From Parcubacteria group bacterium (GTDB taxonomy: Bacteria > Patescibacteriota > Minisyncoccia > Phycocordibacterales > DATDWN01), in assembly GCA_035438705.1 (NCBI GenBank), contig DAORIV010000001.1:43593-107592 (forward strand): DNA of 64,000 bases, written 5' to 3'. The notes below the pieces were generated by a model. The model was not told the DNA's origin, did not search any database, and saw nothing but the letters and a program-made list of their open reading frames with translations. A program made the translations under genes and the position numbers. Shown piece after piece: positions 7,255 through 63,036 of this stretch; the stretch's first letter is position 1; the number at the start of each line of letters is the position of its first letter.

Positions 7255-10200
7255 ATGAGTCTCTCTACTTCTGAAGATTATACTCCACATAGTGGTAATG
7301 AAAGAGTGATTGATCTAGATCATCTAGATGATTTGCCATTAAATGTAAAACAAGATGATAAAGATGTTTTGGGTGATTTTGATATCTTACATAAACAACT
7401 AGACCCTGAAGAAAGAAAATCCGCAGTCGTACATGATTTTTCTGCATATAAAAAACCAACAGAAATAATTGAAGGACCAGTTTCAGAATCTATTGACGGT
7501 TTAGATATCGAAGATTTGAGAACTAAAATTAATTCTAATTTAGAAGATAATAATTTTGATGCTGCATACAATATAATTCAAAAAATTGACAGTGAAAGTG
7601 TTTTACATGCTGTTTTAAGTGAAGCTATCACTTTTCTCATAAGAAAAAAAGAATTTTCAGTTGCAAAGAAATTTGTGCGACTTATTCATAACATGGACGT
7701 GTACACGACTGAACTTAATTACATATTGGAGAAAGAGAGGAATACTGACCCACTTTCAGATTTTAAATCTCAAAATGACGAGGTGGTGGTAAATAAAATT
7801 GAAATTAAAAAACCAAAAAAAGAAGTTGAACCGGTTTTTGCAAATACTGAGAAGGGAAGCATTTCGGATATTAATGAACGCACAATTGACGAGACTAACG
7901 AGGAACTTATCTCTGATGAAGATTATGATAATTTTGTTAAAAAAGGTGATGTCTCAGGCGATATACTGGTAAACATAGCTGACAGAATGGCAAGAGGAGA
8001 AAAAACAACTGAAAGAGAGCTGGCTATTTACCAAACCTTTGGCCCAAAAATTGAATTACTTTTGAGGAATAGAAAAGGTGATAAAGAAGCTGTGGTTGAA
8101 GGGGAAACTGTGGAAACAGAAGACTCACATGAGGTTGTTCCTTCAGTACCAGAAGTAAGTAGTAGTATTGAAAACACCGAAAAACTAGAAAAAGATCTTG
8201 AGGATTCTAGAAAAGAATTTGTTGCACAAGAAGCTGTTTGGAGGGCAAAAAACCAACAAAGTAAAAGTTGGTTTAGAAAAAATGTTCTAGGGAATTTAGG
8301 TATGGACAAACAAACTCCTTTAATCCCAGAACAATCAGAGCTTGAAGAAGCCAGAATTGTGTATAATCTCGCAAAGAAAAATAAACTTAGAGAAACTATA
8401 GGTATGGGGGACATCACTGTCTTATTAGAAGAAACAGAAAGAGAAAGAAAGACTCTCGAATCTTTAAAGTCTAGTTATTCACCAAAAGTTATTAAAGAGT
8501 CCCAACTTAATAGAGATATAAGAACTGGTTTTTTGGGACTTAATTCAAAAGAAGAAGATGGGGTTGTGTACGAAGTGGAAAAGGGAGTGTTTGCAGAAAA
8601 GTTTGAATCTATGTCCCAAAAAGCCATGGATAAATGGTCTAAACTTCCTAAGCCAGTTCAGATAGCTACAAGTACAGCACTTGTTACTGGAACAAGCTTT
8701 ACATTTGGTTTAGCTGCAGCAGCAGGCCCTTTGGGTTATGCAGGATATAGAGTTGCAAAAAGTGCACTATTTGGAGGAGTAGTAGCTCAACCACTTGGAA
8801 AATTTGTTGACAATATACACAATAGAAAAAATAAAGCTTCAGAAGAAGAAAGTCTGGAAGAATTTTCAGAGGGGATAAATATAGATAATTTTGAAGAAAA
8901 AGAAGCAGAAAGAATGGCTCGAGATGAAAAGATGGTGGATGAAAAGAAAAAGCAGAGATTTGTAAAGGCAATGACAAAAGTTGCTGCGGGAGGAATAGTA
9001 TCTGCTGGAATGGAAATGAGCGGTGCATCTAGTTTACTTTTTGATAAGGGAGACATAGACCTTCCTGGAAAAGGCACACTAAATGTTCCAAATGATTTCG
9101 GAGATGTAGATAAAAATTTAGATAAATTAGAAAAATTCAGACTAAATGCAAAAGAAGTTTTACCTACAGATGATAAATTAGATAACCTTCAGGAGTTTAA
9201 GCCTGCAGTTTCAAGTAATTTGGATACAACACAAGTAGTAAATGAAGCACCTTCAGACCTAATTATCCAGGATATTCATAATCTAAAGGCACAGATAATG
9301 TCACAGTATGGGGGAGAGGTACCAGATAGTCTAAAGCCAATCATGGAAAAAACTCCAAAAGAATTAATAAAAATATTTGATTTCAATAATCCAGGTAATA
9401 CTGATTTTAAACCTGGTGTAGATACTGAGGATTTAACTATAGATAGTAATGGAAATGTTTATTATGTACACCAAGATGGAAGCAGGCAAACTCTTTTTGA
9501 TTCACAAAAAGGAAAATTTTACCGATTTGATGGCACTGAAGCTGAAAAAACTATTTCTAGTATAGGAACTGATGGTTCAGAGATTTATCCAAATGGTCAG
9601 ATAGGAGATAAAGTTTATTCCAAACTAGATTTTGGAGGAAATAAGATTTTGACACCAGATCCTGTTGTTCAGACTGTTGGAACAGAAGTGCTGGAGGGTG
9701 ATCCAATTTTCAAAACTGAAGCTGTCTCTGTTTTGGATGTGAAAGATACCACCGAAGAAGAAGTAGCAAATAACACAGTTTCTCACACAGAACTTTCACA
9801 GGGTAAATCTGTAGATGTATTCAGAATGGGAGAAGATAAAATTGTTTCATATGATGGGGCAAGAATTGGTCAGGAGGTATTACAAAATGGTAAAAAAACT
9901 CTAGTTCTTGATGATACTTACCAAGACGGTGAACAGTATAGAAGTACAAGAGAAGCTTTTTCAAAAGCATTTGAGGCAAATGCAACAGTGGAAAACGTTG
10001 GTACGAATCCAATAGCAGAATCTTTTGAAGGTGGTAAAATATATATTACATACAACATTCCAAACGATCCTAATTCAGTTAGAGTTTATTTAAATGGTAA
10101 AGAGATAGCAGTTGGAGATACTACAGTCGTTGATAGTAAGGGAATTCCAAAGATAAAAATGCATGGCAATTTAAAAGGGGGTTGGTTTCTTGTCGACAAT

Positions 10201-33942: not shown

Positions 33943-36900
33943 ATGAAAAAAGTATATTTTATTGTATTTATATTGGGAGCATTATTGTTTAATAATTCAG
34001 TTTATTCTGCAACTGCGACATTTCAACACGGGGTCAATGGTTATACGGGTGGAGAGGACTTAGAAATAAGTAGTGATAACCCAAATACCAATTATATTTC
34101 AGGAGGAAGTAATTATTCTGATAGAAGTGGACTGCGTTTCTGTGGTTCGAAGTGTAATAAAATACTCTTACGTTTTAATTCTCTTGGAATAACGGGCAAC
34201 ATAACAAATGTTAGGCTCGAACTAAAAGAAAGTGGAAGACAAGGTGGGGCAAGTAATATATATGCATATAAAATATCTAAAAATGACTGGGTAAATAGTC
34301 AAACTACTTGGAATACATATAAGACTGGAAGCAATTGGGCATCTGCAGGAGGTGATATAGGTTCAGTATTATCTACAATATCTGCACCTGGGACAAACAA
34401 TTGGGCTAGTTTTGATCTCGGTGCAAACTGGACTATTACAGAATTACAACAAAATGGTATATTAATTGATACTGATATACCCGGATGGAATTATGTCTGG
34501 TTTTATACGAATGAGGCAAGTAATGTAACTGATAGACCAAAACTTATTGTTACCTATGATGGAACAACTCCCACAACCCCAACAACTCCAGCTCCAACTG
34601 TTACAATTTCTGCTTCACCTACATCTATAACTTCAGGTGGAAGTTCAACACTAACTTGGTCTTCAACAAATGCGACATCTTGTACTGCAAGTGGTTCATG
34701 GACTGGAAGTAGAGGAACTTCAGGAACACAATCAACTGGAACACTTACAACAAACTCAACTTTTACACTTTCATGTAGTGGAGCTGGGGGCACAACGAAT
34801 CAGTCTGTCACAGTAATTATCAATTCAACAACACCAGTAACACCAACATCTGGAGGATTAGAAATAGATCTTTCTTATGTAAATCAAAGTTCTCCAGAGT
34901 TTATAAGATTTAAGTCTGTAGTAGATGCTGCGTTAGCTGGAAATCCTGATTATGGTTTTTCAGGCGAACATGCTGCTCTTATGTATAAAATTACTGGTGA
35001 TGTAAGGTATGCTGATTATGCCATCGGTTTTATTGAGAATTGCCAAAATTCAAGATACGCAGGTGCTAATTGTGGAGTACAAGGTGCTGAAGCTTTAATT
35101 TCTAATGGAAACAGACCTCCAGTTGCTGGGGATTCGTATCTTGAAGTTGGTGATATTATAGGTTCTCTTGCACTTGTATATGATTGGGCTGGGTCTAGAA
35201 TGACACAATCTCAGAAAACAAGATGGGCTAATTATGCAAACCAGACAATTTATAATGTTTGGAATCCGAATCAAGCTTCATGGGGAGGAGTATCTCATCC
35301 CTGGACAGGATGGTCTATAAATAATCCTGGAAATAACTATTATTACAGTTTCGTTCAAGCGACAATGTACTGGGCTCTTGCAACAAATGATACAACACTA
35401 CTTTCTTTTGTTAGAAATCAAAAATTACAACCTTTGGTAAATTATTTCAATCAAATCCCAGGTGGAGGAAGTCTTGAAGGAACTGGTTACGGAACTGCTC
35501 ATATGAGAATGTTTCATCTGTATCAGGTCTGGAAAGATTCAACAGGAGAGGATCTTGCAAATGCGAATAGCCACTTAACAGATAGTATAAGACTTTGGTT
35601 ACATCAAACAACACCAAATAGAGCTTATTATGCACCAATAGGAGATTTATCTAGAAGTTCTTTCCCAGATCTATTTGATTATCATAGAAGACTTGTGCTT
35701 GAAGCTCGTAATCTAACAAATAATAACTCTGCAAAAGATACTGCTTCATGGTGGTTAAATAATATTTCTGTGACACAAATGTCTAGACGTATTGATTCTC
35801 AATATGATTTATTACCGAAAGGAATAAATACTAGTGTTGCGCCAAATGAACCTCTGTCATATAGAGCAAGCGGGATAGGTAGAGTATTTGCTAGAACAGG
35901 TTGGGATACAAATGCATTATGGATGTCATTTGCTGCAGGAAAATATAATGAAAGTCACGCACATCAAGATCAAGGATCGTTTACTTTAGCAAACAATGCA
36001 TGGCTTGCTGTTACAAATAATATTTATACGAATAGTGGAATTGAGCAGTCAACCGATTACCACAATATTATCAGATTTGTTCAAAATGGATCAGTAGTCC
36101 CACAAAGAGAGGGTACTGAATCTGTGATGACAGTAAATCAACTTGGAACAAATGGTGAAGTAGATGTAACTGGAAATATCACTCCAGCTTATGGAGGAAG
36201 TTCAGCTGTCCAAAGTTGGGTTAGAAATATTAGATTTTCTGGAAGGAAACTCACAGTTAATGATGGCTTTTCTGTGGCAGCAGGGACTCAAGCAATATTT
36301 CAAATTCATGTACCTGTTCAACCTGTCGTGAGTGGAAACACAATAACAGCAGGTAATTTAAGAGTAAGAGTCCTTGTTCCAGCATCTCCTACGATAACAG
36401 TAGTAAATCAAGGTAGGTATAGAATTGATATAAGTGGTGGAACAAATCAATATGTTGTCGAACTTTCGGATCAAGCAATTACTGGTACGACGATAATACC
36501 AGCACCCCCAGTTTCAGGTAGTCCAACAACTCCCACAACCCCAACAACTCCAGCTCCAACTGTTACAATTTCTGCTTCACCTACATCTATAACTTCAGGT
36601 GGAAGTTCAACACTAACTTGGTCTTCAACAAATGCGACATCTTGTACTGCAAGTGGTTCATGGACTGGAAGTAGAGGAACTTCAGGAACATTGTCTGTAA
36701 CCCCCACAACAACATCAACATATACATTGTCTTGTACAGGCATAGGCGGAAGTATAAATCAATCTACTACAGTTACAGTGAATACTGTGATTCCGACAAC
36801 ACCAGCATCAACACTATTTACATCAGGTCAAAGAGTTCAAACAACAGCCAACCTAAATGTTAGAGCAACTGCTTCATCAAACGGAACACTACTAGGCACG

Positions 36901-38799
36901 CAAAGCACTAGTGCATTAGGAACAATCACAGGAACATCAGTATATGCAAACAGTATAAACTGGTGGAATGTTAACTATGATACTGGAGTAGATGGGTGGT
37001 CATCAGAGCAATTCTTGCAAAATTATGTTGCGCCTACTACTCCAACAACACCTACTGCTCCGACACAACCGACAACACCAAGTGGCACAGGTAGTACTTT
37101 CTACCCTCCAATAAATACTAGTGACACATCAGATGCTCCTCTAATTAACTTTGCTGAAACATGGGCAAGAAACTGGAACTTTGGTGGACACAGTGTAACT
37201 ACTACAAACTGGAGTGGTTGGTGGGATTACAGTGATACTTCTTACGAGCCTTGGTTGTTCGATAGAGCATCAGTTGGTTACTATTTATACAAGAGAACAA
37301 ATGATTCTAAATGGTTAGATAAGTTTATGTCTGACTTTGCTTGGTACAGAGCAAGAATAGATGCAAATGGATTCTTTACACCTACATCCTATGACGATAA
37401 CAAATATGCTTACGTTAGACCATTTCTTTTATATGAAAGACAAACAGGTGACAATCAATATAGAAGTCAAGCACTAAATATTTATAATATGTGGCTTAGA
37501 GAATTTTCTAACACATATAGTACTTCTATTGGACTTTGGACTGAAAGAGAAATTGGTTTAGCTCTTGAAGTTGCTGTAGATTATTACGATCTTACAGGAA
37601 GTCAGGCAGCGCTTACTCGTGCGAATGCACTTGTTACTCAGTGGTCAGTTATGTCGGCAAATAATGGAGGTGCACCACTTCACACTGTAACTCAACATGA
37701 AGGTGGTGGGGGATCTCAAATGATTACTAGTCCGTGGATGAGTGCACTTTATTTTCAAGCTGCATATAAACTTTATGCATTAACCGGTAATACAGAAGTG
37801 TTACAACAAATAAGTAGATATGCTGATTGGATGGAGCAATATGGTTACTTCTCTGGAAATACAGTGGGGGTTTCAAGTGTTCCTACTGCAGCATATTATT
37901 TAGCTGGCCCAAACGGTCCTTACACTGCCGAGACACCTAGTACAGGAGATTTTTCTCACTGTTTAGATATCTCAAATATGATTAAGTTCGCAGTGGTTGC
38001 AAAACAAGCTCTTGGAGAGTCAACTACAGCAGTTGCAAACAGACAAGCACAATTAAAAACATGCGCAGCATATTATTTTGCTGACGCAACAAGAACTACA
38101 ACAAGTCTTCCAAGATACAGAGTAAATCCGGCCAGATCATTTAACTGGTGGGTGCGTTCAACAGTTGAGTACAGAACATCTGGAACAAACTCAACTCCAA
38201 TACCTACTCCAACAGTAACACCAACAATACCACCCACCACAACAACTCCAACTACACCTACATCAGGAGGAGCAGGTGGTGGAAGTTCAGCACCAAGTAC
38301 ACCATCTACACCAGTAACACCTACAACACCGAGTGCAGGGTCAGGAGCTGGGGTAGGTGGAGGAGGCGGAGTGCAAACTCCTAGCTTACCAAGTACAGGT
38401 GGCGGAGGAACATCTTCCACACCTAAACCAGTTATCACTCGCAATTTGTCACCAGGAACAAAGGGAACTGATGTAACACAATTACAAAACTTCCTAATCT
38501 CTACAGGATATCTAGCATCAGGACTAAACACAGGATACTATGGTAATGCTACCAAAGAAGCTGTACAGAAGTATCAATGTGCCACACTTAAACTATGTTC
38601 AGGAACACAAACAACTAATGGTTACGGAGTAGTAGGAACAAAGACAAGAACAGCACTAACTACAACAAACACTCCTGTGCAAACCATAACCTCTACACTT
38701 ACTGCAGAACAAAGAGTTGCAATACAGAAACAGATTAGTGATTTACTTGTAGTTGTCGCACAACTTATGGAGCAACTAAAAGCAATGCAGGGGAACTAG
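33943..38799 (+). CDS. giant (1618 aa) secreted multidomain protein: signal peptide, two near-identical PKD/Ig-like modules, heparinase II/III-like polysaccharide-lyase region, SH3b-like domain, second alpha/alpha-toroid-like region, T/P/G-rich linkers, C-terminal peptidoglycan-binding domain and amphipathic helix
   Basis: ESHAHQDQGSFTL (heparinase II/III-like H-x-H-x-D-x-GSF), PG_binding_1-like LSPGTKGTDVTQLQNFLISTGYL...TKEAVQKYQ, repeated Ig-like WSSTNATSCTASGSW modules. Confidence 0.7.
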   Translation: MKKVYFIVFILGALLFNNSVYSATATFQHGVNGYTGGEDLEISSDNPNTNYISGGSNYSDRSGLRFCGSKCNKILLRFNSLGITGNITNVRLELKESGRQGGASNIYAYKISKNDWVNSQTTWNTYKTGSNWASAGGDIGSVLSTISAPGTNNWASFDLGANWTITELQQNGILIDTDIPGWNYVWFYTNEASNVTDRPKLIVTYDGTTPTTPTTPAPTVTISASPTSITSGGSSTLTWSSTNATSCTASGSWTGSRGTSGTQSTGTLTTNSTFTLSCSGAGGTTNQSVTVIINSTTPVTPTSGGLEIDLSYVNQSSPEFIRFKSVVDAALAGNPDYGFSGEHAALMYKITGDVRYADYAIGFIENCQNSRYAGANCGVQGAEALISNGNRPPVAGDSYLEVGDIIGSLALVYDWAGSRMTQSQKTRWANYANQTIYNVWNPNQASWGGVSHPWTGWSINNPGNNYYYSFVQATMYWALATNDTTLLSFVRNQKLQPLVNYFNQIPGGGSLEGTGYGTAHMRMFHLYQVWKDSTGEDLANANSHLTDSIRLWLHQTTPNRAYYAPIGDLSRSSFPDLFDYHRRLVLEARNLTNNNSAKDTASWWLNNISVTQMSRRIDSQYDLLPKGINTSVAPNEPLSYRASGIGRVFARTGWDTNALWMSFAAGKYNESHAHQDQGSFTLANNAWLAVTNNIYTNSGIEQSTDYHNIIRFVQNGSVVPQREGTESVMTVNQLGTNGEVDVTGNITPAYGGSSAVQSWVRNIRFSGRKLTVNDGFSVAAGTQAIFQIHVPVQPVVSGNTITAGNLRVRVLVPASPTITVVNQGRYRIDISGGTNQYVVELSDQAITGTTIIPAPPVSGSPTTPTTPTTPAPTVTISASPTSITSGGSSTLTWSSTNATSCTASGSWTGSRGTSGTLSVTPTTTSTYTLSCTGIGGSINQSTTVTVNTVIPTTPASTLFTSGQRVQTTANLNVRATASSNGTLLGTQSTSALGTITGTSVYANSINWWNVNYDTGVDGWSSEQFLQNYVAPTTPTTPTAPTQPTTPSGTGSTFYPPINTSDTSDAPLINFAETWARNWNFGGHSVTTTNWSGWWDYSDTSYEPWLFDRASVGYYLYKRTNDSKWLDKFMSDFAWYRARIDANGFFTPTSYDDNKYAYVRPFLLYERQTGDNQYRSQALNIYNMWLREFSNTYSTSIGLWTEREIGLALEVAVDYYDLTGSQAALTRANALVTQWSVMSANNGGAPLHTVTQHEGGGGSQMITSPWMSALYFQAAYKLYALTGNTEVLQQISRYADWMEQYGYFSGNTVGVSSVPTAAYYLAGPNGPYTAETPSTGDFSHCLDISNMIKFAVVAKQALGESTTAVANRQAQLKTCAAYYFADATRTTTSLPRYRVNPARSFNWWVRSTVEYRTSGTNSTPIPTPTVTPTIPPTTTTPTTPTSGGAGGGSSAPSTPSTPVTPTTPSAGSGAGVGGGGGVQTPSLPSTGGGGTSSTPKPVITRNLSPGTKGTDVTQLQNFLISTGYLASGLNTGYYGNATKEAVQKYQCATLKLCSGTQTTNGYGVVGTKTRTALTTTNTPVQTITSTLTAEQRVAIQKQISDLLVVVAQLMEQLKAMQGN
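34565..34730 (+). repeat. intragenic direct repeat copy 1 (~166 bp, PKD/Ig-like module)
   Basis: apparently identical to 36526..36691 (by reading, and by identical antisense ORF translations). Confidence 0.85.
36526..36691 (+). repeat. intragenic direct repeat copy 2 (~166 bp)
   Basis: apparently identical to 34565..34730. Confidence 0.85.
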
Positions 38800-43257: not shown

Positions 43258-43386
43258 TTTTAGCAAAGAGGCACGTTAGGTCAGGAATAGTTTTTTTTAA
43301 AAACTTTCCCGACCCGGACTCGCGTCTAGACGCTCCGTCTCTAAATTACTATCCCATAGTAATTTAGCACTCTGACACGGCTCCAA
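43258..43386 (-). repeat. partial duplicate of the tRNA-Ser 5-prime half (positions ~1-38) interrupted in the D-loop by an ~80-bp insert made of two perfect palindromes
   Basis: GGAGCCGTGTCAGAGTG...[CTAAATTACTAT-GGG-ATAGTAATTTAG ; GCGTCTAGACGC]...CTAACGTGCCTCTTTGCTAAA matches the intact tRNA, then diverges. Confidence 0.7.
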
Positions 43387-43444
43387 TTAATTTCAAGGTT
43401 AGCATATTTTATGTATTAGGTATATTATAGCGCACGGAGGACTT

Positions 43445-43894
43445 ATGCCAGATAGACACGGTTACACCGTTGAAGAATTTGCTCTTTTACTTTCTGTTGG
43501 TGAGTGTACTGTCTACAGATGGATTTACGAGGACACTATCCTGTACTTTAATTCTCGCATACCAAAGAAATATGCAAATAAAATAATAAAGCTTTGGTCA
43601 AAAACATGTACACCTTCTGAATTTTCAAGGCACCTTGGAGTCAGTCCTTCCAAGGTAGACATACTGATTAAAAAAGGAAAACTTCGAACTATTCGAGTGG
43701 TCAGAAAACCTCGGGTTTTTCTAAGAGATCTGGAGAAAATCAAAAATGATAAAAATCTGGTACAAAAGACAGATGTAATTAACAAAAATAAAATAGGTTT
43801 TGCTAGATATTCAAAAAAAAGAAAAACAGCAATTGCTCTATTGGGCTGTTATTCTCCAAATAGAAAAAAGCGGGGTAAAAGAGATATATTTTAA
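43445..43894 (+). CDS. small DNA-binding protein with two HTH (excisionase/MerR-like HTH_17) motifs
   Basis: YTVEEFALLLSVGECTVYRWI and SEFSRHLGVSPSKVDILIKKGKL helix-turn-helix signatures. Confidence 0.5.
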   Translation: MPDRHGYTVEEFALLLSVGECTVYRWIYEDTILYFNSRIPKKYANKIIKLWSKTCTPSEFSRHLGVSPSKVDILIKKGKLRTIRVVRKPRVFLRDLEKIKNDKNLVQKTDVINKNKIGFARYSKKRKTAIALLGCYSPNRKKRGKRDIF

Positions 43895-43896
43895 TT

Positions 43897-43929
43897 AAGG
43901 CGCCCGTCATTACTACGGGCGCCTGTTCT
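43897..43929 (+). terminator. terminator GGCGCCCGT-CATTACT-ACGGGCGCC + T-rich tail
   Basis: 9-bp GC-rich stem after the HTH gene. Confidence 0.55.
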
Positions 43930-43968: not shown

Positions 43969-44055
43969 GGATAGGTGGATGAGTGGTTTAAATCAACGGT
44001 TTACTAAACCGTCGTAGGGTAAAACCTACCGAGAGTTCGAATCTCTCCCTATCCG
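43969..44055 (+). tRNA. class II tRNA (Ser-like, long variable arm) with anticodon loop UUACUAA, apparent anticodon ACU
   Basis: acceptor GGATAGG/CCTATCC, D-stem GAT/ATC, anticodon stem ACGGT/ACCGT, variable arm GTAGG..CCTAC, T-arm GAGAGTTCGAATCTCTC, discriminator G. Confidence 0.6.
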
Positions 44056-44058
44056 CAT

Positions 44059-62208: not shown

Positions 62209-62360
62209 TATTCTATCTCTTCTAGAGCTTTCTCTGTGGAATGTAAAATTCTCTCACGAGGATTTTAAATTATGCCCAACCTCCTCTCGAACCTTACAGG
62301 TTCAGTACACCTTTTGGATTTTTTGTTTCTATTCGAACAAAAAAGTCTCAAAAGGTCTTC

Positions 62361-62410
62361 GAGTCCGGACAAAAGCTGTCCCACAGCTTTTTCCGAGGCA
62401 CGCAAAAATC
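62361..62410. repeat. repeated hairpin element (CAAAAGCTGTCCCACAGCTTTTTCCG...) 3-prime of tRNA-Asp on the minus strand
   Basis: ~80% identical to 62670..62723. Confidence 0.5.
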
Positions 62411-62428
62411 CGCCTTTCAGCGGATTTG
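62400..62428 (-). terminator. terminator AAATCCGC-TGAAAG-GCGGATTTTT following tRNA-Asp
   Basis: hairpin plus T-run on minus strand. Confidence 0.6.
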
Positions 62429-62429
62429 T

Positions 62430-62506
62430 TGGCGCGCCCGGCCGGACTCGAACCGGTAACCTCTCCCGTGACAGGGGAGTGCTCTAACCAGTTGAGCTAC
62501 GAGCGC
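62430..62506 (-). tRNA. tRNA-Asp (anticodon GUC), CCA encoded
   Basis: GCGCTCG acceptor, D-arm TAGCTCAACTGGTTAGAGCA, anticodon loop CTGTCAC, T-arm CCGGTTCGAGTCCGG. Confidence 0.85.
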
Positions 62507-62560: not shown

Positions 62561-62582
62561 TTGTGTCGGCGGGAGGACTCGA
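62561..62582. repeat. 22-bp duplicate of the tRNA-Met 3-prime end (TTGTGTCGGCGGGAGGACTCGA); remainder not tRNA-like
   Basis: identical to 62727..62748. Confidence 0.6.
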
Positions 62583-62669
62583 CAACAACTCAAAATTCGT
62601 CGTCACTCATTTTGGTTTCTTTCCCAGCTCGCGACCTAGTTTGCTAACTAAGGTGCCCGCTCCGTTTTT

Positions 62670-62723
62670 CTAGTCCTCACAAAAGCTCTCCTAGAGCTTT
62701 TTCCGCGATACAAAAACAAATGC
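62670..62723. repeat. repeated hairpin element (CAAAAGCTCTCCTAGAGCTTTTTCCG...) 3-prime of tRNA-Met on the minus strand
   Basis: paralogous to 62361..62410. Confidence 0.5.
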
Positions 62724-62802: not shown

Positions 62803-63036
62803 AATATAGGAAATATAACAGAAAATAAGGAAAAACGGAATATAAAACATACCAGGGACTTTTTCTAGATTCTTATTCGTCGACACTCATAAGAATCTAG
62901 AACGCAGATTTGCGACAATCCGTACTCGGATTGTAAACCGCAAATCTGTGCAAGTTCTGACGTAAACTACCCCAGGTAGTTTACTGTCCTCGAACAAGTA
63001 AGCAAAAACTCCTAAAAAGGAGTTTTTGCTTACTTG

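Follow-up and report, generated by a model that had tools for sequence, protein, structure and literature searches.

What is an interrupted half of a tRNA gene doing immediately in front of the intact gene, and how did it get there? The question is raised by a 64,000-nt stretch of a Parcubacteria group bacterium (GenBank assembly GCA_035438705.1, contig DAORIV010000001.1, positions 43,593–107,592; hereafter the window), in which the gene for tRNA-Ser(GCU) is preceded by a partial copy of its own 5′ half, split in the D-loop by an 88-nt insert. Our preferred reading, to which we give slightly better than an even chance, is that this insert belongs to a family of small, folded, non-coding elements common beside tRNA genes in Paceibacteria. 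The locus was compared with 80 loci from related genomes (L numbers below), which were fetched through the neighbouring PilM gene and belong to Paceibacteria/Parcubacteria metagenome-assembled genomes with PilM identities of 49–89%. The core of the element comprises a stem, Pa, that encloses the hairpin H1, followed by a long hairpin, H2, and the locus is laid out as follows.

43230 to 43138, minus strand: intact tRNA-Ser(GCU), the functional copy (ARAGORN; Rfam tRNA model, 46.3 bits)
43258 to 43231, minus strand: spacer Y, AAGAAAGCATGTTGAATGTTATTTTATT, 28 nt, between the partial copy and the intact tRNA
43279 to 43259, minus strand: fragment B, CTAACGTGCCTCTTTGCTAAA, 21/21 identical to tRNA nt 20–40 (repeat search and our own duplicate scan)
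43367 to 43280, minus strand: the insert, 88 nt, between fragments A and B
43384 to 43368, minus strand: fragment A, GGAGCCGTGTCAGAGTG, 17/17 identical to tRNA nt 1–17
43385–43451, minus strand: native upstream region, by homology to the upstream regions of L014 and L011
43341–43367, minus strand: perfect 12-3-12 hairpin, CTAAATTACTAT-GGG-ATAGTAATTTAG (inverted-repeat search; 12 + 12 perfect)
43322–43333, minus strand: palindrome GCGTCTAGACGC, the collapsed H1
about 43280–43315, minus strand: third, imperfect hairpin, GGGTCGGGAAAGTTTTT/AAAAACTATTCCTGACC, with an A/T-rich tip, corresponding to H2
43280–43340, minus strand: element core, consisting of AGACGGAGCG, the collapsed H1, CGCGAGTCC and H2, which ends in CCTGAC

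Because the tRNA lies on the minus strand, its upstream side corresponds to higher coordinates. The original prediction, made from the letters of the window, had described a copy of the first ~38 nt of the tRNA, interrupted in the D-loop by ~80 bp made of two perfect palindromes. The copy is exact over nt 1–17 and 20–40, and the D-loop site and both palindromes are as described; the interruption measures 88 nt, and the third hairpin had been overlooked. In the intact tRNA, the dinucleotide ‘GT’ is all that separates the A and B segments. Fragment B runs from the D-loop into the anticodon loop, where it stops at the 3′ edge, and sits where the 3′ arm of the element, a_R, belongs. Beyond nt 40, the partial copy departs from the tRNA (AAGAAAGC versus GAGGTGTA), and nt 41–93 are missing. 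Spacer Y shares the motif TTGAATGTT with the equivalent spacer of the relative L057. On the other side, a sigma-70-like promoter candidate (CTGGCA-16-TATAAT, 43451 to 43424), found by a consensus scan and of unproven function, is aimed at fragment A and the tRNA. A site free of the insert would join the native upstream sequence ...CTTGAAATTAATT to an uninterrupted GGAGCCGTGTCAGAGTGGTCTAACG...GAGG, and a circle or excision junction of the insert would read TTCCTGAC directly followed by CTAAATTACTAT.

In shuffled sequence, the chance expectation is 0.01 for each palindrome and 0.00 for fragment A, and the 146-nt region folds with −51.6 kcal/mol (z = −6.0). The region recurs in ten further independent contigs from different samples (JGI, Logan and NCBI): eight contain it in full with 100% identity, one has a single-base difference in the tRNA trailer and one is incomplete at its 5′ end. 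This sharing of the region rules out an assembly artefact. We also rejected a tRNA intron and a split or permuted tRNA, since fragments A and B cover only nt 1–17 and 20–40 and their joining yields no complete tRNA; neither ARAGORN nor Rfam detects a second tRNA at the partial copy. When spacer Y was compared with the native upstream region as its possible source, the ungapped identity was 12/28 (hand count, AT-rich sequence), on which we base no claim.

The relationship of the insert to other sequences emerges from a BLAST match, in which its 3′ 66 nt are 86% identical to L014:5195–5260. This segment of L014 sits 3′ of another tRNA, Ser-ACU, whose 3′ end recurs behind the segment as a 19-nt duplicate. 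In addition, the core of the insert matches the family profile (nhmmer, E = 1.2e-12), and the insert matches the covariance model R1 over the full model length with 57.7 bits (E = 5e-15), with Pa and H2 intact and H1 deleted or collapsed. These two scores are partly circular, because the insert is among the sequences from which both profiles were built; the BLAST match to L014 predates the profiles and does not depend on them, and thus serves as the independent evidence of membership. Sequence comparison identifies the 88-nt insert as a copy of a repeated, patchily distributed family of non-coding elements. The original prediction had taken uniqueness of the palindromes, together with absence of the region from the transcript, as the finding that would speak against it. 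The exact palindromes are indeed unique in the window, yet the insert as a whole has two clear relatives and one weak relative there and numerous others elsewhere; it is in the palindromes that the family varies most. The suggested comparison with relatives bore out the prediction in part, as L014 is colinear without the insert and family copies occur at other tRNAs.

Elements of the family are ~60–115 nt long and non-coding. On the tRNA strand, the canonical order starts with the tRNA and a trailer that holds a terminator-like hairpin and T-run, and continues with a 5′ arm (a′), the core and a_R. The canonical core reads GAAAGAC-GGAGCG, H1, GGTCGCGAGTCC and H2 (GGGTAGGGAAAATTTTT ... AAAAATTATTCCTGAC), in which H1 is a hairpin of 7–8 bp with an ANYA loop and otherwise free sequence, and H2 starts with GGGT(A/C)GGG. 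The arm a′ is antisense to the T-loop, the 3′ strand of the T-stem and the 3′ strand of the acceptor stem, whereas a_R is a 15–21-nt duplicate of the tRNA 3′ end that begins at C56 in the T-loop, so that a′ can pair with a_R. The tRNA beside a canonical copy stays intact. In L214, the arm TGGGATGGGAGAGTCGAA is the reverse complement of the tRNA at 17/18 positions, and it still matches the intact tRNA while the distal duplicate has decayed. That a′ is a genuine reverse complement, as opposed to a repeat of the T-arm in sense orientation, follows from the non-palindromic T-loops of L211 and L212.

The fold was examined on a 13-copy alignment that includes the insert and from which R1 was also built, with helices P1 (a′ with a_R), Pa + H1 and H2. 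Paired cells amount to 83%, compared with 73% in shuffles (0/500 shuffles reach the observed value) and 32–53% in slid controls, and 23 pairs carry changes on both sides. G-U outnumbers A-C by 48 to 13 overall and by 24 to 2 in H2, which argues that the element folds on the tRNA-sense strand, either as RNA or as sense single-stranded DNA. The motif CGACGGYG occupies the H1 position in short forms and the H2 loop in long forms. A long-Pa subfamily comprises one further window copy (w3, below), the second L011 copy and L025, and its stems covary (CGGATTGTCG/CGACAATCCG, CAGATTTGCG/CGCAAATCTG and ATTGGCG/CGCCAAT). Another subfamily, with a short-H1 core (GAGCGCGACGGYGCGAG), lies away from tRNAs and includes the second L023 copy together with the following.

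L026:3208–3291, non-tRNA copy
L030:7623–7707, non-tRNA copy
L031:5891–5973, non-tRNA copy
L034:4233–4317 and 9219–9303, two non-tRNA copies

These copies follow the terminators of protein genes and are enclosed by long inverted repeats of 14–30 bp, perfect in those listed, whose sequence is unique to each copy. L026 and L030 apparently occupy one site, since both stand behind the same gene end and its terminator. Between the two, P1 differs at six positions, all of them compensated. Throughout the family, the arms differ from copy to copy and track the local tRNA or the local hairpin, so that no conserved terminal inverted repeats are found. As a separate observation, the element after tRNA-Trp in L211 (480–720) contains an extra insertion of ~230 nt in H1 with inverted repeats of ~24 bp (CTAAGAGTCTGTTCATAATCTAAT/GTTAGATTATGAACAGGCTCTAAG), which appears to be a second small element nested in the first.

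How does the insert itself compare with this architecture? Read on the tRNA-sense strand, its core keeps the family order of Pa, H1 and H2. The 12-3-12 hairpin forms the arm region; its 3′ arm, ATAGTAATTTAG, stands in the position of the family arm a′ and resembles the arm of the non-tRNA copy L026 (CTAATTTTAGAGAC), and its 5′ arm begins with CTAA, the four bases that follow the D-loop insertion point (GAGTGGT↓CTAACG). P1 with the 3′ flank is only 4 bp long (CTAA/TTAG), because the arm pairs instead with the adjacent inverted copy of itself. The insert also lacks CGACGGYG, which is present in the other copies inspected, and carries TCTAGA in its place. The D-loop site GGT↓CTAA resembles the usual T-loop site GTT↓CGAA. 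Owing to its 5′-side position, the D-loop site, the 4-bp P1 and the missing CGACGGYG, we regard the insert as degenerate, and it is probably an inert, decayed copy.

The origin of the local arrangement is best followed by comparison with the sister species L014. The window segment 43368–43452, that is, fragment A and its upstream sequence, is colinear with the 5′ end and upstream region of the L014 tRNA (83.7% over 86 nt, BLAST), and the intact tRNA of the window aligns to that same L014 tRNA (BLAST). Since L014 is free of the insert, this colinearity identifies fragment A as the displaced original 5′ end of the gene, together with the native promoter region. Relative to L014, the window has gained 154 bp flanked by 17-nt direct repeats, and this addition consists of the 88-nt insert, fragment B (nt 20–40), the 28-nt spacer Y and a fresh copy of nt 1–17. 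It is this fresh copy that lets an intact tRNA follow, and the element now lies in the 5′ leader of the tRNA. The 154-bp addition contains no open reading frame (ORF). L011, L013 and L021, which are as close as L014, also lack the insertion, and in most relatives tRNA-Ser(GCU) and tRNA-Ser(ACU) are divergent and ~65 nt apart. Two orders of events may be envisaged. A 68-bp duplication of the tRNA 5′ half, with its junction at the anticodon loop, could have come before the element, which would then have landed harmlessly in the redundant upstream copy; alternatively, the whole unit could have been gained at once by recombination across the 17-nt repeat.

Other copies reveal how closely the family is associated with tRNAs. 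Pattern and hidden Markov model (HMM) searches found copies in L011, L018/L019, L023, L045 (two) and L080 and a second one in the window, and R1, searched against the window and 85 loci (0.92 Mb), gave 25 matches at E < 1, 21 of them below 1e-3. An exact 23-mer scan of metagenome contigs recovered eight contigs, all eight with true copies, each directly after a tRNA (Trp-CCA, Glu-CUC, Gly-UCC, Leu-CAA or Ser-CGA). Family copies in the relatives lie beside Ser, Met, Leu, Glu, Gly and Trp tRNAs, and an unmodelled filler lies beside Ile. All copies near a tRNA (17/17) are on the tRNA strand. The window holds two further clear copies and one weak relative.

62570–62681, minus strand: w2, 77.9 bits with the covariance model, downstream of tRNA-Met (62802 to 62728), ending in a 20-nt duplicate of the tRNA 3′ end (TCGAGTCCTCCCGCCGACAC)
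62862–62948, minus strand: w3, long-Pa subfamily, 32 bits with the covariance model (E = 1e-6), downstream of tRNA-Met (63107 to 63036)
62357–62453, minus strand: w4, weak and tentative, 14 bits with the covariance model (E = 0.06 with filters off), downstream of tRNA-Asp

The 3′ duplicate of w3 has decayed (AAGTCCCTGGT), and the antisense arm of this copy, GTCAGAACTTGCA, corresponds to the T-loop and T-stem; in w4, terminator hairpins are followed by GTCCGGACTCGAA, antisense to TTCGAGTCCGG of tRNA-Asp. The segment 62357–63107 on the minus strand is thus a tRNA-Met/tRNA-Met/tRNA-Asp cluster; behind each of its tRNAs stand terminator hairpins and an element of the family (w3, w2 and the weak relative w4, respectively). 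With the insert, the 64 kb contain three clear copies and one weak copy beside four of five tRNAs, and the elements are small, non-coding and present in several copies per genome, as expected of miniature inverted-repeat transposable elements (MITEs).

Our own scan of 59 tRNAs found 10 with an exact 15–21-nt duplicate of the 3′ end lying 98–155 nt downstream and starting at T-loop positions 56–60, and four with a 15–19-nt duplicate of the 5′ end that ends in the D-loop and lies 52–137 nt upstream. Duplicates of 13–24 nt accompany the tRNA-linked copies, and none is found at copies away from tRNAs. They lack CCA, which points to DNA, not mature tRNA, as their template. Upstream 5′-end duplicates of 15–19 nt were also noted at the tRNA-Ser genes in L014:4954–5070, L039:4645–4757 and L057 (minus strand, ~272–340), each directly followed by a perfect hairpin at the D-loop junction. 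The fillers of L014 and L039 are alike in sequence (CGAACACG ... ACGAAGT(GAA)TATATT), which suggests a second, 5′-side filler family without the described core. A different setting is seen in L018/L019 (1–3890), where a canonical copy is accompanied by a tRNA-like 3′ fragment (CGAATCTCGCTCTCTCCGC) and no tRNA is detectable in the locus. The L019 copy adjoins one edge of an accessory island that spans at least 3.7 kb and encodes an XRE helix-turn-helix (HTH) protein, a glyoxalase, a SnoaL-like protein, an Asp/Glu racemase and an AbiEii toxin. Behind the island come 550 nt that are GC-rich and non-coding and match nothing in Rfam.

The same tRNA site may be empty or filled among close relatives. 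At Ser-ACU, three of 13 genes scanned have a 3′ element, and the three belong to different subfamilies (L011, L014 and L023); at one tRNA-Leu site, L215 and L216 carry different variants, and the L216 arm mismatches that tRNA. This patchy presence points to gain, loss or replacement and not to old vertical inheritance. The architecture, covariation, patchy distribution, family membership and displacement of the native 5′ end are established by these comparisons.

For the way in which such elements might spread, the boldest reading, which we consider doubtful, is the following. The conserved scaffold (Pa/H1 and H2) would bear an arm that can be exchanged and that pairs with the 3′ side of the hairpin loop in a tRNA, and the element would insert at G(T/G)T↓C in T-loops and, at the present locus, in a T-loop-like D-loop. 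Insertion would regenerate the cut gene end, so that essential tRNAs survive. Mobilization would occur in trans, either by an enzyme or by the host recombination and replication machinery. Our preferred model, namely that the element is non-autonomous, mobilized in trans, folded as a single strand and guided by a′ to tRNA hairpin loops, and that the insert landed in or came with the 5′-half duplicate, is one that we hold tentatively, at somewhat less than even chances.

Several observations weigh against our overall reading. The two orders of events, 5′-half duplication first or element first, fit the locus equally. L057 displays the same layout of A, hairpin, B and Y without the core, which could reflect an old shared structure instead of a recent insertion; either the layout is old and easily lost through its direct repeats, or it has formed recurrently. 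Neither an excised form nor an insert-free allele was found at this locus, as the insert is present in all 11 contigs. Furthermore, it is the sole modelled copy that lies unambiguously 5′ of its tRNA and in a D-loop (w3 lies between two tRNA genes), and targeting of a ‘T-loop look-alike’ therefore rests on one case. A terminator-like hairpin stands between tRNA and element in most 3′ copies, which disfavours simple co-transcription. Lastly, no mobilizing enzyme was found in the window ORFs tested, in the neighbourhoods of copies or in IMG/VR contigs. Pfam detects no recombinase, transposase or reverse transcriptase in 12 window ORFs, including both ORFs that flank the locus, or in six ORFs of the L019 island, and the ORFs around six metagenome copies look like housekeeping genes (translations judged by eye, without a profile search). 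No HUH (TnpA) or DEDD transposase was seen among the window ORFs tested or near copies, and no reverse transcriptase lies next to copies, where the downstream sequence is a tRNA, a tRNA duplicate or housekeeping genes. Of the 120 loci that a 15-mer scan of IMG/VR returned, the family HMM marks every one as a chance match, and the specific 23-mer had no match; a viral origin has no support from these scans.

Among other explanations, a scar of classical site-specific recombination, in which a tyrosine-integrase island or phage at a tRNA attB was mostly deleted and left its att duplicates and ends, with the excisionase-like HTH_17 gene next to the locus as a leftover, is in our view unlikely. 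In its favour, repeats of 15–21 nt, derived from the tRNA 3′ end and beginning in the T-loop, bound the 3′-type copies, as is reportedly the case for P4-type integrases among the sublocations of Williams (2002). The distal repeat of L214 has decayed as a displaced host end would, tandem arrays have a more decayed distal unit (L011 and L045), the end of fragment B coincides with a classical crossover site, the anticodon loop, the HTH_17 gene adjoins the locus, and the L019 copy borders the accessory island. However, no integrase was found in any neighbourhood examined, the fillers fall within a narrow 98–155 nt, unlike random deletion remnants, and near-identical cores stand at tRNAs of different sequence, a range beyond any single attP identity block. 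Double-stranded att arms would not be expected to show an antisense arm, compensatory changes or a G-U bias. At this locus, moreover, it is the 5′ part (nt 1–17 and 20–40) that is duplicated, with the junction in the D-loop, whereas the repeat of a 3′ segment is seen at the 3′-type copies elsewhere; we know of no integrase sublocation with a D-loop junction and 5′-part duplication. L014 carries the HTH gene too, without this insert. The original prediction had offered a remnant of site-specific integration or excision and a tiny MITE side by side; a copy of an insertion element fits best, and the classical scar fails on the duplicated 5′ part, the D-loop junction and the missing integrase. Spread without any recombinase, by homologous or homology-facilitated recombination among naturally competent cells with the tRNA and its end duplicate as homology arms, and locally by recombination or slippage after the 5′ half had been duplicated in tandem (68 bp), would explain why no mobilizing enzyme was found. 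The window encodes a Pfam Competence-family protein, a ComF-like protein, PilM and PilB/T-like ATPases, all tRNA-linked cassettes have double-crossover geometry (a tRNA and a direct repeat of its end on the two flanks), and the spacing of the B copies (68 nt) equals that of the A copies minus the insert. Yet transfer between different tRNA species, the antisense arm, the strongly conserved structured core and the non-tRNA copies inside long inverted repeats are left unexplained, and we consider it distinctly improbable.

The sense orientation of all 17 tRNA-linked copies and the marked excess of G-U over A-C would also suit a structured RNA of use to the host, released from tRNA leaders or trailers by tRNA-processing enzymes and having a role of its own in regulation, protein binding or guiding, with mobility secondary. 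The conserved loop motifs (the ANYA tetraloop on H1 and GAGYGNCGRCGA or CGACGGYG), the compensated P1 changes between L026 and L030 at an apparently orthologous site, and the native promoter candidate, which would read through the insert, agree with such an RNA. Against it, terminator-like hairpins with T-runs precede most copies, patchy presence at a given tRNA in close relatives misfits an essential function, no Rfam family matches, and the insert has neither the conserved motif nor more than 4 bp of P1 with its 3′ flank. We judge a host RNA of this kind quite unlikely. The tRNA and the HTH_17 gene diverge from a 215-bp region that contains the palindromes, a position that would suit operators of the adjacent HTH protein or a decoy 5′ half that tunes tRNA-Ser expression; the original prediction had named a decoy or regulatory hairpin cluster. 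Such a local device is extremely improbable. L014 has the orthologous HTH gene and promoter region without palindromes, and sequence comparison with this relative largely refutes the idea; in addition, the palindromes are variable parts of a dispersed element family, and L011 and other relatives lack both the HTH gene and the insert.

Further candidates were set aside on other grounds. The junction sequences and size of the three-way junction do not fit hammerhead, HDV-like or group I ribozymes (by eye). Priming of reverse transcription by a tRNA, with the arm resembling a primer-binding site, is at odds with an arm that mostly stops short of the tRNA 3′ end and with duplicates that lack CCA. 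No Rfam 15 family matches, and only tRNAs pass the gathering threshold in the window; searches over the canonical copies in L023 (E <= 10) and L019 (E <= 1) returned nothing credible. Full-text literature searches found no description of such elements.

Comparison with known systems places the proposed mobile elements between several classes. Integrative elements that target tRNAs, such as those with P4/T-loop tyrosine integrases and the Prochlorococcus tycheposons, likewise insert into tRNA genes, keep the gene whole with a replacement 3′ end, leave the displaced end as a 15–21-nt direct repeat from the T-loop and form tandem arrays with older units distal. The present family differs in its length of 60–155 nt without an integrase or other ORF, in its conserved folded core and target-antisense arm, in one core serving many tRNA species, in some copies being unrelated to tRNAs and, at this locus, in duplication of the 5′ part with a D-loop junction. 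MITEs and small palindromic repeats (Correia/NEMIS, ERIC and REP/REPIN) are similarly small, non-coding, multi-copy and intergenic, with long hairpins, often just after terminators, and are presumed to be mobilized in trans. Unlike theirs, the terminal inverted repeats of the family are not fixed, vary per copy and derive from the target beside tRNAs; no target-site duplication of fixed length is evident, and no cognate transposase or RAYT was identified in the neighbourhoods examined.

Elements that act through guides or single strands (IS200/IS605 guide tetranucleotides, IS110/IS1111 bridge/seek RNAs, integron attC and CTX-phage attP) share the one-strand fold, target-complementary sequence beside a conserved scaffold and insertion in a hairpin loop at G(T/G)T↓C. 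By comparison, the arm of the family (9–18 nt) and its matched flank complement each other and not adjacent halves of a target, and no HUH, DEDD or Xer-type protein is linked to the family; the resemblance is one of logic only. The topology also recalls retron non-coding RNA (a1/a2 around msr and msd), in which variable inverted repeats close a region of short hairpins and one long hairpin; unlike retrons, the family has no downstream reverse transcriptase gene, many copies per genome and tRNA-derived arms. Transposed archaeal tRNA introns (D-loop, T-loop) are alike in that related inserts occupy such positions in different tRNA genes. The present genomes are bacterial, however, and the intact tRNA is uninterrupted; splicing of the interrupted copy could not yield a tRNA, because the 3′ half is missing.

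Few mobile elements or structured RNAs are on record for the candidate phyla radiation, whose genomes are tiny. We regard the family as previously undescribed; it is absent from Rfam and mixes traits of tRNA-targeting islands, MITEs and guide-bearing elements. That it represents a new kind of self-targeting, non-autonomous mobile element or mobile RNA gene of these bacteria is doubtful on present grounds, though worth entertaining. Its abundance is considerable, with a family member at four of the five window tRNAs and end duplicates with such fillers at about a quarter of the tRNAs scanned in relatives. For annotation, the family accounts for stray tRNA fragments that pipelines would label as pseudogenes or att sites, and its patchy presence at orthologous sites provides cheap markers of recent genome change. 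If the antisense arm does pick the target, the family would exemplify compact insertion into essential genes that is directed by base pairing, involves no protein gene and repairs the gene on entry. If the element is instead a processed RNA, it would be a new, widespread RNA family riding on tRNA transcription units.

Several neighbouring features were also recorded. At 43969–44056 on the plus strand lies a type-II tRNA-Ser with the anticodon ACT, that is, with A at position 34 (Rfam, 56.4 bits); to our knowledge, A34 is unusual in bacteria outside tRNA-Arg(ACG). ARAGORN finds tRNA-Ser(ACT) in 12 of 24 relatives scanned, always next to tRNA-Ser(GCT); the pair is divergent, mostly 60–80 nt apart, in 11 of the 12, and lies on the same strand, ~1.3 kb apart, in L033. 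Between the two tRNA-Ser genes, the window (43445–43894, plus strand) and L014 (4432–4878) have an ORF of 149 aa with two HTH_17 (excisionase/MerR-like) matches, and a strong terminator hairpin stands at 43898–43924. Among the sampled relatives, only these two carry the ORF at this position and most others have the ~65-nt spacer; the ORF looks like a separate cassette insertion. Farther away, a plus-strand ORF of 1618 aa (33943–38799) begins with what resembles a signal peptide and contains, besides long Pro/Thr linkers, a pair of almost identical ~60-aa repeats (…TVTISASPTSITSGGSSTLTWSSTNATSCTASGSWTGSRGTSGT…); its product is probably a large surface protein.

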